Source: Escherichia phage 55
Direction: 5' to 3' (one strand)
DNA: 64,000 nt
Sequence record: OQ599310
Part shown: positions 9,401 through 63,002 of the stretch, in pieces
Numbering within the stretch: position 1 is the stretch's first letter
Layout of the letters: the number at the start of each line of letters is the position of its first letter
Program-made: the position numbers and the translations under genes
Notes under the pieces: generated by a model
Told to the model about the DNA's origin: nothing
The model's input: the letters and a program-made list of their open reading frames with translations, nothing else
Databases searched by the model: none

Positions 9401-9430
9401 GTTTACATCTTCCTCTAGGCATGATATGAT
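9401..9430 (+). promoter_or_regulatory. T4-type early promoter
   Basis: GTTTAC then TATGAT with about 18 bp spacer. Confidence 0.45.
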
Positions 9431-9458
9431 GAACTTACACAAACCAAGAGGAAACATT

Positions 9459-9833
9459 ATGAATATGTCTCAAGCAATTTTTACTGCAATCACCGAAAAC
9501 ACAACTGTTGAAGTAGTTTCTCCGCTGGCAACCTACGTTATTCTTGCTCCTAAAACTATTGTATCTCGTATGGAAAACATGGGCAAACGTATCGTACAAA
9601 TCGTTGGAGCCGGAAATCAAAAACTTGATTATCTGCGAACCATCAAAGCTTATGAACATTTCCAACTCGAAAAAGGTTCTCCTATCCAGGTAGAACTCGT
9701 AAATGGTGATATCGTTCGAGCAATGTTCCATCATTTCTATGCATTGAATGACCCATCTAAAGCGGTTCGTTTAATTGCATACGACGCAAACCAAAACGAA
9801 ATCAATGCAGATATATCTAAATTACGTTTTTAA
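9459..9833 (+). CDS. hypothetical protein
   Basis: ORF with AGAGGAAA RBS. Confidence 0.5.
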   Translation: MNMSQAIFTAITENTTVEVVSPLATYVILAPKTIVSRMENMGKRIVQIVGAGNQKLDYLRTIKAYEHFQLEKGSPIQVELVNGDIVRAMFHHFYALNDPSKAVRLIAYDANQNEINADISKLRF

Positions 9834-9866
9834 GTTTACTTCTCCAGTAGTTGTGTTATTATAGAC
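9834..9866 (+). promoter_or_regulatory. T4-type early promoter with flanking 10-bp inverted repeat (CCAGTAGTTG / CAACTACTGG)
   Basis: GTTTAC at 9834-9839, TATTAT -10 at 17 bp; inverted repeat 9844-9853 and 9871-9880. Confidence 0.5.
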
Positions 9867-9888
9867 CTATCAACTACTGGAGAACAAA

Positions 9889-10206
9889 ATGAAAACCATC
9901 GATTGTAAAGCAGAATTTAAGATTTTTTATCACGGTTCAAGTAGTTCAGTTAACATCGAAAACATGCTTTGTCCTCCTGAAGAAACAGGAGTTCTGTCTG
10001 AAACTGGACGTAAGAAAAACTTGGATCGTGTATTCTTTACTGAAGATATCGGTTTAGCAAAGATTTATGCAGGACGAGCAGCACGCTCTTATGGAGGTGA
10101 ACCACGTCTCTATCGAGTAATTTCTCCGGTAGACGTAGTTCAAATGAATGATACTAAAGGTGCTACAGTTTATCACGCTGAATGGGCCTTCTGTGAGGAA
10201 ATCTAA
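9889..10206 (+). CDS. hypothetical protein
   Basis: ORF downstream of early promoter. Confidence 0.5.
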   Translation: MKTIDCKAEFKIFYHGSSSSVNIENMLCPPEETGVLSETGRKKNLDRVFFTEDIGLAKIYAGRAARSYGGEPRLYRVISPVDVVQMNDTKGATVYHAEWAFCEEI

Positions 10207-11306: not shown

Positions 11307-11340
11307 GTTTACATTATAGATGGACTATAGTATAGTAGTC
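11307..11340 (+). promoter_or_regulatory. T4-type early promoter
   Basis: GTTTAC then TATAGTATAGTAG. Confidence 0.45.
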
Positions 11341-11365
11341 CTATCAAATCAACTAAGGAGTTAAA

Positions 11366-14341: not shown

Positions 14342-14863
14342 ATGGCACACTTTAACGAATGTTCACAACTTATTTCTGGTGTTGATAAAGCAGAAGAAGC
14401 TTATTTTAATGCTCTGATTCACGAAGATAAAGACCCACTGCAGGTAATGCTTGATATGCAGAAATCTTTACAGGTTCGTCTGGCAAATGACAAGCCTGAA
14501 CATAACAAACATCCTGATGAATTGGCTACTGCTGGTGATGTTGTTGATTGGCTGCGTAATCAGAAAGATTATATTGATGATGAATTCCGTGAACTGCTGA
14601 CTTCACTTGGTGGTATGAGCAATGGTGAAAAAGCCGCTAGCTCTGTATGGAAGCCATGGAAAGCACAACATGCTGAATATCGTAATCGTCGTATTGATGA
14701 ACTGTCTCCTGAAGACCAACTGGAAATTAAGTTTGAAATGATTGATATTCTCCATTTCGTTCTGAACATGTTCCAAGGTCTTGGTCTTACAGCAGAAGAA
14801 ATCTTTAAACTTTATTACCTGAAAAATGCTGAAAATTTCGCACGTCAAGACCGAGGTTATTAA
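14342..14863 (+). CDS. 56: dCTP pyrophosphatase (dCTPase-dUTPase), gene 56
   Basis: MAHFNEC...PLQVMLDMQ...ETAGDVVDW...EIFKLYYLKN..NFARQDRGY matches T4 gp56. Confidence 0.85.
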   Translation: MAHFNECSQLISGVDKAEEAYFNALIHEDKDPLQVMLDMQKSLQVRLANDKPEHNKHPDELATAGDVVDWLRNQKDYIDDEFRELLTSLGGMSNGEKAASSVWKPWKAQHAEYRNRRIDELSPEDQLEIKFEMIDILHFVLNMFQGLGLTAEEIFKLYYLKNAENFARQDRGY

Positions 14864-17029: not shown

Positions 17030-17058
17030 GTTTACATTCCCTCCTCTCGTGTTATGAT
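17030..17058 (+). promoter_or_regulatory. T4-type early promoter
   Basis: GTTTAC then TATGAT at 17 bp. Confidence 0.5.
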
Positions 17059-17085
17059 AGGCTTATCTTTAAATGGAGGTCTATC

Positions 17086-17667
17086 ATGACATGTCAATCT
17101 GAACTTCAAGAACGCGAGTATCTCGCAGCACTAATTAACGATAAATTCACTAAACAAGAACAAAACATTCTCTGGGCTTGCACCGATTCTAAGGAAGACC
17201 CGGATTTCCACTATGAATTAGACCATCTTGTTCGTAAGCATATGACTTCTACAGTACCAGTAGAACTCTACCGTGGTGTAACTCCAGAAGAAGTAGAACA
17301 TCTTTCCCTTCTTTCTGTTGGATGCCATTGGTCTCCTGGACGAGTAACATCGTTCACAACTGATTTCAGTACGGCTCGTCAATTCTCTGGGAGATGGGAA
17401 TATCAGACGTACACTATTCTTAGTCTCAGGAATGCTCCATTCATTTTTGATTACTACCAAAACATGGTTAACATTGTACTCGCCGGAAAGAATCCTAAGC
17501 ATGTTATGGAAGAAACGCGCGTTGACGTCCTAGATATGATTGAATCTGAACAAGAGTACATGGTCTCAGGCATCTCTAGATTTGAGATTGTGGAAATTGA
17601 AGACTTAGAATATGACCCTTTATCTCGATTATACAAAATCATTCATTTGAAAATGTTGAATTTTTAG
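17086..17667 (+). CDS. modB: ADP-ribosyltransferase, ModA/ModB family (first of two paralogs)
   Basis: R-S-E type motifs (YRG, TTDFS, E-x-E); order relative to dda matches T4 modB. Confidence 0.55.
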   Translation: MTCQSELQEREYLAALINDKFTKQEQNILWACTDSKEDPDFHYELDHLVRKHMTSTVPVELYRGVTPEEVEHLSLLSVGCHWSPGRVTSFTTDFSTARQFSGRWEYQTYTILSLRNAPFIFDYYQNMVNIVLAGKNPKHVMEETRVDVLDMIESEQEYMVSGISRFEIVEIEDLEYDPLSRLYKIIHLKMLNF

Positions 17668-21549: not shown

Positions 21550-21579
21550 GTTTACAACCAAGGATGGTTGGAGTATAAT
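21550..21579 (+). promoter_or_regulatory. T4-type early promoter with inverted repeat (ACAACCA/TGGTTGG)
   Basis: GTTTAC then TATAAT at 18 bp. Confidence 0.55.
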
Positions 21580-21609
21580 CTTTCTATCTTAACCAAACAG
21601 GAAAACATT

Positions 21610-22105: not shown

Positions 22106-22136
22106 GTTGTACATCCAAGGATGGATGGAGTATAGT
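22106..22136 (+). promoter_or_regulatory. early promoter with inverted repeat (CATCCA/TGGATG)
   Basis: TTGTAC then TATAGT. Confidence 0.45.
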
Positions 22137-22168
22137 GAATTCAATTTAAACAAAGAGAGAGAGAAATT

Positions 22169-22624
22169 ATGATTACTATTGGTGAAATTAAGCGTGTATC
22201 GTCTGCATCTCGTTCTAAAGCTGCAGGTCGTCTAGTTGAAGTGGTAGGACTTCGTACTAATGGTACTGGACGTGTTAAAGAAGTTAAAGTTCGAATCATT
22301 CCTAGTTCTGGAAAAACTGAAACTCAGTACGCTTACGTAAGTCCTAAATTCTTGGAAACTCATGTGAGCGCTCATTTTGCTTCTACTGAACCTAATGTAC
22401 AGTTCAAATGGGCCCTTTGCAAAGGCGTTGAATTCCGGACTGATAAAGAATTTGATTTCATCGACGAATATGGTTATCCAAACAAAACTGATATTATGTG
22501 CGGCTTCATCACTGACCAATGGGTTGAAGATGGTGAAAAGTTATACAATATCGTATTCTTAGGTGACTTCCGAGTTGTTAAAGAATCTGAAATCACTCGC
22601 TATGTGTCTCCTCGTAAAGCTTAA
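22169..22624 (+). CDS. hypothetical protein, tandem paralog
   Basis: SASRSKAAGRLVEV... and DQWVEDGEKLYNIVFLGDFRVV shared with neighbours. Confidence 0.5.
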   Translation: MITIGEIKRVSSASRSKAAGRLVEVVGLRTNGTGRVKEVKVRIIPSSGKTETQYAYVSPKFLETHVSAHFASTEPNVQFKWALCKGVEFRTDKEFDFIDEYGYPNKTDIMCGFITDQWVEDGEKLYNIVFLGDFRVVKESEITRYVSPRKA

Positions 22625-23057: not shown

Positions 23058-23089
23058 GTTTACTTCTCCTCTGGTTTTGATATTATAAC
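23058..23089 (+). promoter_or_regulatory. T4-type early promoter with 11-bp inverted repeat (CTCCTCTGGTT / AACCAGAGGAG)
   Basis: GTTTAC, TATTAT at 17 bp; repeat arms 23066-23076 and 23096-23106. Confidence 0.5.
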
Positions 23090-23112
23090 CATATCAACCA
23101 GAGGAGAATAAT

Positions 23113-23637
23113 ATGTTAGTTTACCGCGTAGAACGTAGTTTTTGTACTCAACGTGAATCATTACCAGGAATTGTTATCGAAGACGGTAAAGCCGTCAGAA
23201 TTTGGGAAACCTCTTGGAATAAAGAACCTCGCTCACCTTACGGTTGGTCTGGCACTGACAACTCTGAAGAAACATGGGAGTTCCTTGATAAGCATGGAAT
23301 ACTCTCAGGTAACTTCTACCATCACGGCGACAACTATAATGTCCCTAATCGTCCTACTGTAAATGAGGACAAACTTCTTGAACAAAATATCTTAAGATAC
23401 TACAGAATTGAGCACACATTTGAATTGAACGAAGATTGGGCTCAAGGGTTCTATTTTGGATTTGAAAGTGTTGACGCGGTTTATGCATGGTTTGATGACC
23501 AGGTGGATGTTGAACTCTTGAAAGCTAAAGGATACTACATCGCGGTCTATGAAGCACCTGATTTCATCCTCGGAAGTTGTCAATTAATGTTTAGACGTTC
23601 ATTGGCAGAACAAGTTGATTTTATTTTGCTAAAATGA
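23113..23637 (+). CDS. hypothetical protein
   Basis: 174-aa ORF. Confidence 0.5.
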   Translation: MLVYRVERSFCTQRESLPGIVIEDGKAVRIWETSWNKEPRSPYGWSGTDNSEETWEFLDKHGILSGNFYHHGDNYNVPNRPTVNEDKLLEQNILRYYRIEHTFELNEDWAQGFYFGFESVDAVYAWFDDQVDVELLKAKGYYIAVYEAPDFILGSCQLMFRRSLAEQVDFILLK

Positions 23638-31434: not shown

Positions 31435-31460
31435 TGGGGACTTCGGTCCCCTTTTTTTCT
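31435..31460 (+). terminator. rho-independent terminator after rIIB
   Basis: GGGGACTTCGGTCCCC then TTTTTTT. Confidence 0.75.
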
Positions 31461-32265: not shown

Positions 32266-32296
32266 GTTTACAACTAAGTAGGACTATGATATAGTA
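32266..32296 (+). promoter_or_regulatory. T4-type early promoter with TAGGACTAT/ATAGTAGTCCTA inverted repeat
   Basis: GTTTAC then TATGATATAGT. Confidence 0.45.
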
Positions 32297-32321
32297 GTCC
32301 TATCTAAAAGAGGATAACATC

Positions 32322-32777: not shown

Positions 32778-32808
32778 GTTTACAACAAGGTAGGATTATG
32801 GTATAGTA
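32778..32808 (+). promoter_or_regulatory. T4-type early promoter with GTAGGA/TCCTAC inverted repeat
   Basis: GTTTAC then TATAGT. Confidence 0.45.
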
Positions 32809-32835
32809 GTCCTACTGAAACATGAGGAACACAAA

Positions 32836-33036
32836 ATGGCTAAGCTTTTTAAAGATGTTGAAATTGGTGAAAAATTTGTTCTGAATAATGGTCAGCAGCT
32901 TATTCGTGTAGCTTCTATCACCGGACAAACTCATAACTGTATCGCCCCAACGTGTTGGACTCGATTCTTTATTGAGGATGACACTGAATGTTTAACTGTT
33001 GAAGAGCTTTTTGAACGTTCTGATATAACCGAATAA
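32836..33036 (+). CDS. hypothetical protein
   Basis: 66-aa ORF. Confidence 0.4.
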   Translation: MAKLFKDVEIGEKFVLNNGQQLIRVASITGQTHNCIAPTCWTRFFIEDDTECLTVEELFERSDITE

Positions 33037-33038
33037 AA

Positions 33039-33068
33039 TTGTACAAACTCTTGAGAGCAGAGTATAAT
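33039..33068 (+). promoter_or_regulatory. early promoter; -10 TATAAT inside GAGAGCA/TGCTCTC inverted repeat
   Basis: TTGTAC at 33039-33044, TATAAT at 33063-33068. Confidence 0.55.
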
Positions 33069-33112
33069 GCTCTCATGGATTACAAAAACATTAATCAATT
33101 GAGGAAATTAGC

Positions 33113-33559
33113 ATGTCCAAATATTTAACTCGTAAAGACCTTCTAGCAGTTGGCGGTGAAGTTGTTGCAGTAGTTCGTAATGGTGAATACGGTTCTGAAG
33201 TTTCTAAAGAGTTTCGTTCTCGTGAAGGTTTTTACTTCTTTGTTAAAGGTTCATCTGATTGGCGACAAGTAGCAGCACGATTCTTTGTAGGACGTCAACG
33301 TTCTAAACAAGGGTTGGATGCAATTCTTTCTCACATTCGTCAAGGCCGTTCGCAACTAGCCCGTACCATGGGCACTAACAATATTGAATATGATGTAATC
33401 TTTGTTGCAGCTAAGAACATGAAACCACTGACTACTGGTTATGGTAAAGGACAATTGGCTCTGGCATTCACTCGCAACCATACATCAGAATATCAAACAC
33501 TCACTGAAATGAACCGTCTTCTGGCTGATAATTTCAAATTCATTCTGCAGAGTTACTAA
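33113..33559 (+). CDS. ndd: nucleoid disruption protein Ndd-like
   Basis: 148 aa; position between rIIB and 52; recalled similarity to T4 Ndd ([37 protein letters not shown]). Confidence 0.5.
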
Positions 33560-33611
33560 TTTATACGGGCCTATTAAGTTGGGCCTTTAATTTATTTTTG
33601 AGGTAATTAAA

Positions 33612-35228: not shown

Positions 35229-35304
35229 GTGCCCTAGCCTTAGGATTTCTCAGTGCAATAGCTGCACTAGTGATTTGGCTGTATTGGTTGGACAAACATG
35301 ATTA

Positions 35305-35330
35305 GGGAGCCGAAGCTCCCTTTTGTGCAT
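35305..35330 (+). terminator. stem-loop GGGAGCCGAAGCTCCC followed by T-run
   Basis: hairpin then TTTTGTGCATTTTT. Confidence 0.55.
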
Positions 35331-35339
35331 TTTTCCTCA

Positions 35340-35414
35340 CAAAACAGTTTACATGTGCTTCAAACATGATATTATAGACCTATCAAAACAAAACAACCAA
35401 ATTGGAGAAATAAA
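35340..35414 (+). repeat. promoter/5'UTR cassette, copy 1 (GTTTAC..GCTTCAAACATGATATTATAGACCTATCAAAA..TTGGAGAAATAAAATG)
   Basis: near-identical to 35660-35733. Confidence 0.6.
35347..35376 (+). promoter_or_regulatory. T4-type early promoter
   Basis: GTTTAC, TATTAT at 17 bp. Confidence 0.5.
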
Positions 35415-53603: not shown

Positions 53604-53632
53604 TGTACAATCAGATAGGGCTATGTTATAGT
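53604..53632 (+). promoter_or_regulatory. early promoter with TAGGGCTA/TAGCCCTA inverted repeat
   Basis: GTGTAC then TATAGT at 17 bp. Confidence 0.45.
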
Positions 53633-53665
53633 AGCCCTATCAAATCAAAAGTGAAGGAGAATAAA

Positions 53666-60057: not shown

Positions 60058-60086
60058 TTTACACACCACAAGGATTGTGGTACAAT
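60057..60086 (+). promoter_or_regulatory. T4-type early promoter with CCACAA/TTGTGG inverted repeat
   Basis: GTTTAC then TACAAT at 18 bp. Confidence 0.5.
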
Positions 60087-60102
60087 TTAAAAAACTAACT
60101 GA

Positions 60103-61238: not shown

Positions 61239-61268
61239 GTTTACAAACACCAAGGAAGGTGTTACTAT
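61239..61268 (+). promoter_or_regulatory. T4-type early promoter with ACACC/GGTGT inverted repeat
   Basis: GTTTAC then TACTAT at 18 bp. Confidence 0.5.
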
Positions 61269-62143: not shown

Positions 62144-62430
62144 TTAAATTAACCGCAGTTGTATTATCTATTGGTATTTTGGCTGGATGTGCCCAGGCTG
62201 TGCCCTTAAGCCCTAAAGAAACTTTACATCCGCCATGGCCTGAATCTATTGTTGAATATAACCAGAAATGGCAAGTAAAGGTTATTGATGGTAATCCATG
62301 GGTTGGAATGCCATTTGAAGACTCTCAAGAATTTCGTATCTGGTTAAACGACGTAAAAAGATATGTACATGACCAGAAGACTATGTTATGTTATTATCGT
62401 AGTGGTTTAAAAGAGGAAAAATGCCAATGA
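62140..62430 (+). CDS. putative lipoprotein
   Basis: MIKLTAVVLSIGILAGC signal peptide plus lipobox. Confidence 0.5.
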   Translation: MIKLTAVVLSIGILAGCAQAVPLSPKETLHPPWPESIVEYNQKWQVKVIDGNPWVGMPFEDSQEFRIWLNDVKRYVHDQKTMLCYYRSGLKEEKCQ

Positions 62431-62645
62431 CTAAAGAACAGCATGAATACATTAAAGGGCTTATCTATGAATCTGAAATGGCGGCTATGATTTATGGGCG
62501 CCAGATTCAACGATTAGAATCTTTGCCTCCGACTAATGACCGATTGTTAGTTCAGTCTCGTGCTAATCTGAAAAATGAATATCAGAATAAGTGGGCAGTA
62601 GCGACTAAAGCTCTTCACGAGTATATTGAATCTTTAGTAAAATAG
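62421..62645 (+). CDS. hypothetical protein
   Basis: ORF. Confidence 0.4.
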   Translation: MPMTKEQHEYIKGLIYESEMAAMIYGRQIQRLESLPPTNDRLLVQSRANLKNEYQNKWAVATKALHEYIESLVK

Positions 62646-62674
62646 TTTACAAACTCTCAGGAGCAGAGTATAAT
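62645..62674 (+). promoter_or_regulatory. early promoter; -10 TATAAT inside AGGAGCA/TGCTCCT inverted repeat (paralog of the 33039 promoter)
   Basis: GTTTAC at 62645-62650, TATAAT at 62669-62674. Confidence 0.55.
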
Positions 62675-62702
62675 GCTCCTATGGATAATTGAGGAAATCT
62701 AA

Positions 62703-63001
62703 ATGAAAACATTACTAGAGAATTACATCAAACGGTCTGATGAGTATATTGTTATCTGTCGTGGAATGTCACTTGGCAATTATGACAAAGATGCAGCAAA
62801 GGCACTAGATGAAGCAGGTAAAGCTCTTCGTAAAGCTGCTAAAGAAAAAGGGTTGGATTTGCAACAACTCAAAAGTCATATGATTAAATTTATTTCTTCA
62901 AACGTTAGAAGTACGTCAATTAATAAAAACGTTGCTGAAATTAATAAAGACCGGCGCGAGCATAACATTCGTATTCTTGAAATTTTCTTAGGAATAAAAT
63001 A

Positions 63002-63002
<1 letters not shown>
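62703..63002 (+). CDS. hypothetical protein
   Basis: ORF. Confidence 0.4.

Follow-up and report, generated by a model that had tools for sequence, protein, structure and literature searches.

Covarying stem-loops around the −10 box of two predicted early promoters in a Mosigvirus genome belong to a dispersed, PeSL-type cassette family

The DNA analysed here (hereafter, the window) is a stretch of 64,000 nt from Escherichia phage 55 (OQ599310). It is 97–98% identical to Mosigvirus phages, which are T4 relatives of the RB69/JS09/HX01 type, and is itself a Mosigvirus (RB69/JS09-like) genome. A preliminary description had pointed to two promoter cassettes in it, each with a stem around TATAAT. 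Both were found in the sequence as described, with the same stem arms, at 33039–33074 (cassette 1, TTGTACAAACTCTTGAGAGCAGAGTATAATGCTCTC) and at 62645–62680 (cassette 2, GTTTACAAACTCTCAGGAGCAGAGTATAATGCTCCT). Cassette 1 lies between ndd.1 (32836–33036, identified from the JS09 annotation) and ndd (33113–33559). Cassette 2 lies between pseT.1 (62421–62645) and an ORF of 99 aa (62703–63002), which is followed by ORF230c and then by pseT. The genes flanking both cassettes are all located on the + strand, the strand of early transcription. In each case the stop codon of the upstream gene falls inside an AT-rich stretch adjoining the −35 box, and a GAGGAAA ribosome-binding site with an ATG follows 26 nt (cassette 1) or 10 nt (cassette 2) past the stem. 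The 99-aa product matches phrog_2364 end to end (E = 3e-47), a family without an assigned function in PHROGs; the RefSeq record of ATK47 (NC_055708.1), a close relative, carries no annotation for the ORF and leaves a 356-bp gap instead. The features of the two cassettes are the following.

33020–33039, + strand: cassette 1, AT-rich stretch GAATAAAAT with the ndd.1 stop codon TAA (33034–33036); from the sequence, the ORF and the JS09 annotation
33040–33045, + strand: cassette 1, −35 hexamer TGTACA, followed by a 17-nt spacer; 10/12 matches
33049–33051, + strand: cassette 1, outer helix, UCU pairing with GGA at 33077–33079 with a 1-nt bulge; from the RNA minimum free energy fold
33052–33059, + strand: cassette 1, 5′ arm TGAGAGCA, within the spacer, at about −23 to −16 as counted from the predicted start
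33063–33068, + strand: cassette 1, −10 hexamer TATAAT, of which TATAA belongs to the loop GAGTATAA (33060–33067, 8 nt)
33068–33075, + strand: cassette 1, 3′ arm TGCTCTCA, in the discriminator region, opening with the last T of the −10 hexamer
33101–33115, + strand: cassette 1, GAGGAAA (33101–33107) and the start codon of ndd (33113–33115; phrog_1102, Ndd-like)
62636–62645, + strand: cassette 2, AT-rich stretch GTAAAATAG, in which the pseT.1 stop codon TAG (62643–62645) abuts the −35 hexamer
62646–62651, + strand: cassette 2, −35 hexamer TTTACA, followed by a 17-nt spacer; 11/12 matches
62658–62665, + strand: cassette 2, 5′ arm CAGGAGCA, of which AGGAGCA (62659–62665) is paired and the outermost C faces an A
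62669–62674, + strand: cassette 2, −10 hexamer TATAAT, lying inside the loop GAGTATAA (62666–62673) except for its last T, which is the first base of the 3′ arm
62674–62681, + strand: cassette 2, 3′ arm TGCTCCTA, ending at the predicted start A62681
62691–62705, + strand: cassette 2, GAGGAAA (62691–62697) and the start codon (62703–62705) of the 99-aa ORF (phrog_2364)

In linear order, cassette 1 reads GAATAAAAT-TGTACA-AACTCT-TGAGAGCA-GAGTATAA-TGCTCTCA-TGGAT and cassette 2 reads GTAAAATAG-TTTACA-AACTCT-CAGGAGCA-GAGTATAA-TGCTCCTA-TGGAT. Further sequences common to both are ATGGAT, following the stem, and AATTGAGGAAAT, at the ribosome-binding site. The σ70-like hexamers, TGTACA-17-TATAAT and TTTACA-17-TATAAT, together with the AT-rich upstream stretch carrying a stop codon and the downstream GAGGAAA and ATG, bear out the designation as promoter cassettes. 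Each cassette is predicted to be a strong σ70 early promoter. The promoter of cassette 1 would drive ndd, and that of cassette 2 would drive the 99-aa gene and then ORF230c and pseT. Two unannotated intergenic stretches would thus be tied to early expression of ndd and of the small gene block upstream of pseT.

The window contains two matches, and no more, to the core common to both cassettes, TACAAACTCT-N5-GCAGAGTATAATGC; 100 dinucleotide-preserving shuffles gave none. Local BLAST revealed no further full copy of the cassette in the window. A candidate third copy at 17665 was rejected: it shares only TGTACAAACTCTT, its −10 sequence is TACTAT, and no stem embraces that sequence. Scanned in full against Rfam at gathering thresholds, the window matched no family. 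Promoter-like hexamer pairs as such are no commoner here than in shuffles, as would be expected if two AT-rich promoter-like stretches had matched by coincidence. This explanation is already refuted, however, by the absence of the core from the shuffles, by the 26 variants of the family described below and by a 71-nt region to which 147 phage records show an identity of 95% or more.

The arms GAGAGCA/TGCTCTC of cassette 1 and AGGAGCA/TGCTCCT of cassette 2 are both perfect inverted repeats; the perfect arms extend over 8 bp in cassette 1 (TGAGAGCA/TGCTCTCA) and 7 bp in cassette 2. Two neighbouring pairs are not the same in the two cassettes (G-C/A-T versus A-T/G-C), and each change is compensated in the opposite arm. 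A stem does surround the −10 box, as had been described, but the loop is not exactly TATAAT: it reads GAGTATAA in both cassettes, and the 3′ arm begins with the final T of TATAAT. RNA folding gave −13.9 kcal/mol (z −3.8) for cassette 1 and −12.2 kcal/mol (z −3.0) for cassette 2. With four to five G-C pairs per stem of 7–8 bp the hairpin is G+C-rich, and in the RNA fold the stems reach 10–11 bp once the outer UCU/GGA helix is added.

The position of the transcription start was deduced from the usual distance of 7 nt past the −10 box. The predicted starts, A33075 in cassette 1 and A62681 in cassette 2, are the final base of the 3′ arm. In promoter coordinates, then, the spacer (about −23 to −16) would be complementary to the segment that begins with the final T of the −10 box and ends at +1. 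With the start predicted at the end of the 3′ arm, the hairpin would be missing from the promoter's own transcript, and therefore could form only in RNA initiated upstream (read-through RNA) or in DNA. The outer UCU/GGA helix, too, can be formed only by RNA that began upstream. A search of the literature for mapped RNA ends of early T4 transcripts gave nothing relevant.

An ATG is present at the predicted start of both cassettes (33075–33077 and 62681–62683), and a leaderless mini-ORF beginning there was considered and rejected: other family members have GTGGAG, ACGGAT or CTGGAG at this place, and the reading frames of the two cassettes are unlike. Not being conserved across the family, the ATG probably does not serve as a start; from it, cassette 2 would encode an ORF of 3 codons ending within the ribosome-binding site. 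Masking of the ribosome-binding site by the hairpin on read-through RNA, an arrangement seen at other promoters of the window, was likewise rejected for both cassettes. The ribosome-binding site is not within the conserved helix, which ends at +1, and lies 10–26 nt beyond it. In a longer fold of cassette 2 only, an alternative weak UCUCA/UGAGG pairing was found; it is absent from cassette 1.

The preliminary description had read the differing stem arms as covariation, which, from two copies alone, is weak evidence. To align homologs, public contigs were scanned with the arm-blind pattern TACAAACTCT-N8-GAGTATAAT, in which flanks and loop are fixed and both arms are free. A first scan requiring ATGGAT after the stem yielded 5 loci; with this requirement dropped, 65 loci were obtained. 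In all, the arm-blind scans gave 80 instances, which reduced to 26 distinct rows in T4-like contexts. Searches of IMG/VR with Ndd and PseT.1 found 3 and 6 close relatives, respectively. Five loci in unrelated contexts (L021, L024, L028, L029 and L044), taken as chance or non-family matches, were left out of the alignment; one pair of excluded matches lies upstream of a gene for a 440-aa membrane protein. None of the five has the stem. They served as an informal negative control and are probably matches by chance.

Pairing in the 8-bp helix holds for 98.6% of cells across the 26 rows, compared to 36–53% when the partner is slid by 1–3 columns. The rows are related, and cell counts are therefore higher than the independent events they represent; relatedness is retained in the slid-register control, which still falls far below the real register. 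Five of the eight stem pairs changed on both sides: pair 2 occurs as G-C, G·U or A-U, pair 3 as G-C or A-U, pair 5 as A-U or G-C, pair 6 as G-C, C-G, U-A or U·G, and pair 7 as C-G, A-U or U-A. Only one of the eight is invariant. The observed pairing or covariation score was reached in 0 of 500 column shuffles. Since the arms were absent from the search pattern, the covariation is not an artefact of ascertainment. The outer helix is a different matter: its GGA is present in 26/26 family rows, but its TCT formed part of the search pattern, and the covariation therefore says nothing about it. Covariation of the inner stem was thus found among homologs from related phages, and the claim that had been made from two copies held.

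The same architecture is found elsewhere in the window. Among 17 candidate + strand early promoters, six (11308, 32267, 32779, 33040, 53604 and 62646, all + strand, z −2.9 to −6.0) enclose the −10 box in a hairpin of the same register. Four of them constitute a second family with TATAGT as the −10 sequence (11308–11349, 32267–32308, 32779–32820 and 53604–53645), whose register is identical to that of the two cassettes. The stems of this family, TAGGACTA/TAGTCCTA, TAGGATTA/TAGTCCTA and TAGGGCTA/TAGCCCTA, covary too, and its most stable copy, at 53604, folds with −18.7 kcal/mol (z −6.0). In a fixed-register test every match to T[TG]TAC[AT]-N17-TAYWDT in the window and in all fetched loci was collected; at least 7 of 8 pairs were formed in 41 of 112 distinct promoter-like sequences, compared to 0–3 sequences in slid registers.

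Other structures were seen at further promoters of the window. A third class has a hairpin wholly within the spacer (21551–21592, 22108–22149, 60058–60099 and 61240–61268) with a conserved AGGA/AAGGA loop and covarying stems (CAACCA/TGGTTG, CATCCA/TGGATG, CCACAA/TTGTGG and ACACC/GGTGT); these promoters sit upstream of motB, rnlA, alc and one other gene. At 9402–9480, 9835–9915, 23059–23140 and 17031–17110 the spacer can pair with the Shine-Dalgarno region that follows (e.g. TTCCTCT/AGAGGAA), with stems of 13 bp at 9835 and 12 bp at 23059. Such stems can be formed only by upstream-initiated RNA and would therefore silence translation of read-through RNA, leaving the promoter's own transcript translatable. 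Canonical terminators consisting of a hairpin and a T-run were observed at 35304–35334 (after gene 52), 31436–31458 (upstream of denB, bidirectional) and 33567–33596 (after ndd). The promoter at 35348 has no embedded hairpin, and a textbook terminator lies 25 nt upstream of it. The ordinary terminators at 35304, 31436 and 33567 indicate that the phage uses them where promoter cassettes supply no stem. These arrangements fit a picture in which every early promoter has some structure ahead of it to deal with transcription arriving from upstream.

To ask on which strand the pairing is maintained, stems were selected by a rule that does not favour G·U over A·C: of the 8 pairs, 5 or more had to be Watson-Crick and 7 or more transition-compatible. 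The 49 distinct stems that passed, from the cassette family and the second family, contain 46 G·U and 4 A·C cells among the non-Watson-Crick ones; counted as distinct combinations of position and context, the numbers are 26 and 4. The mean folding energy is −12.8 kcal/mol on the + strand versus −9.3 kcal/mol on the − strand (Wilcoxon p = 3e-9), an average advantage of 3.5 kcal/mol for the + strand over its complement. Since G·U is tolerated and A·C is nearly absent, and a feature of the duplex would penalise both alike, the stem is maintained on the sense strand. Selection keeps the pairing on the + strand, most likely in read-through RNA. Taken by itself, the asymmetry would fit RNA or the non-template DNA strand alike.

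A palindrome centred on the −10 box could instead function as double-stranded DNA, by extruding a cruciform or by serving as a symmetric operator of a dimeric phage or host regulator, for which this would be an obvious place. Folds computed with DNA parameters (−6 to −7 kcal/mol, z about −3) are indeed better than those of shuffles. However, the arms vary among paralogs in one genome (GAGAGC, GGAGC, GGACT, GGGCT) with pairing kept, which disfavours a sequence-specific protein, and a search for the half-site expected of a palindromic operator revealed none conserved in both arms, which stay complementary as they vary. The roughly tenfold excess of G·T over A·C is also at odds with a duplex or cruciform, where both should be penalised. 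Arms of 7–8 bp with an 8-nt loop are, moreover, short for the extrusion of a cruciform. We consider a role of the DNA duplex very unlikely; the stem most likely acts in read-through RNA and not as a DNA palindrome.

If the hairpin acts in RNA, it could be a canonical rho-independent terminator of the upstream gene that overlaps the next promoter by chance. The site is intergenic, a stable RNA hairpin stands right after the stop codon, and the PeSL papers discussed below call their stem-loops terminators; in one of them, one RB49 stem-loop lowered lacZ expression to the same extent as rrnB T1 (PMC2839356). The present hairpins differ from rho-independent terminators in that the 8-nt loop carries the −10 box and a U-tract is missing: the tails are ATGGATTAC and ATGGATAAT, and among the 49 stems the 8 nt after the stem contain 0–4 T. 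A + strand terminator scan flagged neither cassette, while terminators at 31436, 33567 and 35304 were flagged or directly visible. Classical intrinsic termination is unlikely given the missing U-tract and the result of the scan, and we hold a canonical terminator to be improbable here.

The hairpin, which lacks a U-tract and is selected on the + strand, might also be an RNA signal of an uncharacterised kind. It could bring about factor-dependent termination, or 3′ ends generated by an endonuclease, in T4-type early transcripts specifically, or serve as a small decoy or pause RNA for σ70-containing polymerase passing through an internal promoter. Its loop always presents the −10 sequence, UAUAAU or UAUAGU. 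T4 early promoters have extra conserved positions of unexplained meaning (Hinton 2010, PMC2988021), and if this reading were true, an RNA function would explain them. We regard it as unlikely.

By BLAST the 71-nt cassette is present in 731 phage records. The repeated core, about 42 nt long, occupies 3–4 places per record in Mosigvirus, 2–3, at other places, in Dhakavirus and Gaprivervirus, and one (upstream of motB) in Tequatrovirus, in agreement with the earlier view of the two cassettes as paralogous. It is found upstream of at least nine different genes, six of which have no assigned function in PHROGs. The genes downstream of cassette copies are as follows.

ndd, motB, pseT, the 99-aa ORF and VR26 gp280
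an ORF of 109/110 aa in the gene 55-nrdH region, and ORFs of 197 aa, 160 aa and 153 aa

At the ndd locus, phage VR26 has the order ndd.1-cassette-gp280-cassette-ndd, compared to ndd.1-cassette-ndd in the window. VR26 gp280 is a 114-aa gene (phrog_10053) located between the tandem cassettes (L019 411–853, corresponding to window 33036–33113). Its insertion or deletion fits the pattern that recombination between cassette copies would be expected to produce. At the pseT locus, the order in phage ESCO47 is pseT.1-cassette-pseT; it lacks ORF99 and ORF63, which the window carries past cassette 2. No second cassette bounds the extra ORFs, so this insertion is not explained by recombination between cassettes alone. 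The motB promoter is of the cassette type studied here in the metagenome contig L025 and of the spacer-hairpin type in the window, an apparent promoter replacement. The first ~20 aa of motB and the end of its leader are alike in the two (window 22108–22190, L025 ~14676–14750).

Copies at three loci in Mosigvirus have the derived core GAGAG, and the same loci in other genera have GGGAG, GGGAC or GGGGT. In a Gaprivervirus-like contig (L054/L060) the ndd and motB copies both have the stem TGGGGTCA/TGACCCCA. Stem states common to the copies within one genome point to conversion or duplication between copies. The stem variants shared within genomes and the cassette-bounded insertions and deletions would both fit a role of the cassettes in module shuffling.

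That conversion or duplication occurs also lends something to a neutral explanation, in which the paired changes are by-products of quasi-palindrome template switching or of gene conversion between copies, with no selection for structure; the two pairs that differ between the cassettes are adjacent, as a single templated event would leave them. Template switching, however, predicts perfect palindromes and no strand bias, and many lineages keep G·U and almost never A·C. Compensated states arose independently at five pairs, across genera and loci, and the register recurs in the second promoter family, whose stem sequence is unrelated. A purely neutral origin is quite unlikely in our view.

Taken as a whole, the data are best explained, with high probability, by PeSL-type cassettes of Mosigvirus that combine an early promoter, a read-through hairpin maintained on the sense strand and a patch for recombination. 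Promoter anatomy, repetition, covariation, strand asymmetry and insertions and deletions bounded by cassettes are observed. Promoter activity and the start site are predicted from them, and so are termination or stabilisation by the hairpin and the mechanism of recombination. Read-through RNA from the upstream gene would form a hairpin of 8–11 bp with UAUAA in the loop. Such a hairpin may insulate adjacent early transcription units, either by attenuating or pausing the incoming polymerase or by forming a protective 3′ end on the upstream message; insulation would be achieved without a canonical U-tract terminator. Cassettes of ~40–60 bp at several loci would at the same time provide patches of homology, through which recombination could insert, delete or swap small genes together with their promoters. 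The cassettes then mark the boundaries of exchangeable modules and should be useful landmarks for the comparison of T4-like genomes. They also offer clean material for testing the role of a hairpin that lacks a U-tract and surrounds a −10 box.

Several known systems resemble the cassettes in part. In T4 genes e, soc and 49 a hairpin sequesters the ribosome-binding site on read-through RNA, and an internal promoter gives the translatable message. The cassettes are similar in that the promoter lies within the hairpin and only upstream-initiated RNA folds. They differ in that the ribosome-binding site is 10–26 nt past the stem, outside the conserved helix. An e/soc/49-like pairing of spacer and ribosome-binding site is found at other promoters of the window (9402, 9835 and 23059).

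Early promoters of RB69 and T4 were predicted by Nolan et al. 2006 (PMC1524935) and reviewed by Hinton 2010 (PMC2988021). Like them, the cassettes have a −35 box of the GTTTAC type, an A-rich UP-like region and a −10 box with the conserved A-11 and T-7. RB69 early promoters prefer C at −3 to −1, positions that in the present cassettes belong to the 3′ arm. Complementarity between spacer and discriminator, however, is described in neither paper, and a word search of PMC1524935 for stem, palindrome and inverted repeat found no mention of them.

The closest counterparts are the promoter-early stem-loop (PeSL) cassettes, described in RB49/phi1 by Arbiol et al. 2010 (PMC2839356) and extended to T4/PST and KVP40/nt-1 by Comeau et al. 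2014 (PMC4122927). PeSLs are repeated in variable regions beside orphan ORFs and are tied to insertions and deletions. For RB49/phi1 elements, promoter activity and a terminator-like effect were shown, and mini-circles arising from recombination between tandem PeSL copies were detected (PMC2839356). Judged by sequence, both sites in the window belong to the PeSL class, as all features that define it at this level are present. A stop codon of the upstream gene in an AT-rich stretch is followed by σ70 −35/N17/−10 boxes, and the −35 consensus TTTACW reported for T4/PST matches. The stem-loop overlaps the −10 box, one of the two commonest reported positions, and G·T pairs occur in the stems. A ribosome-binding site and an ATG stand at the 3′ end. 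Finally, the elements recur across the genome beside small genes of unassigned function, and they delimit insertions and deletions by which related phages differ.

There are also differences. The stems described here are of mixed sequence (GAGAGC/GGAGC), in contrast to the G-tract/C-tract stems of RB49, and may behave differently. Experimental work on PeSLs is confined to RB49/phi1 elements. The present copies are found in Mosigvirus, a genus that neither PeSL paper discusses; covariation statistics and an asymmetry between G·U and A·C are not stated in the parts of both papers considered here. This kind of element was thus already published in 2010, and the Mosigvirus copies are newly added to it. 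Our analysis contributes quantitative covariation, a fixed register common to two stem families and the sense-strand asymmetry, and with it the RB69-like phages join the T4-type phages that carry PeSL promoter/stem-loop modules.
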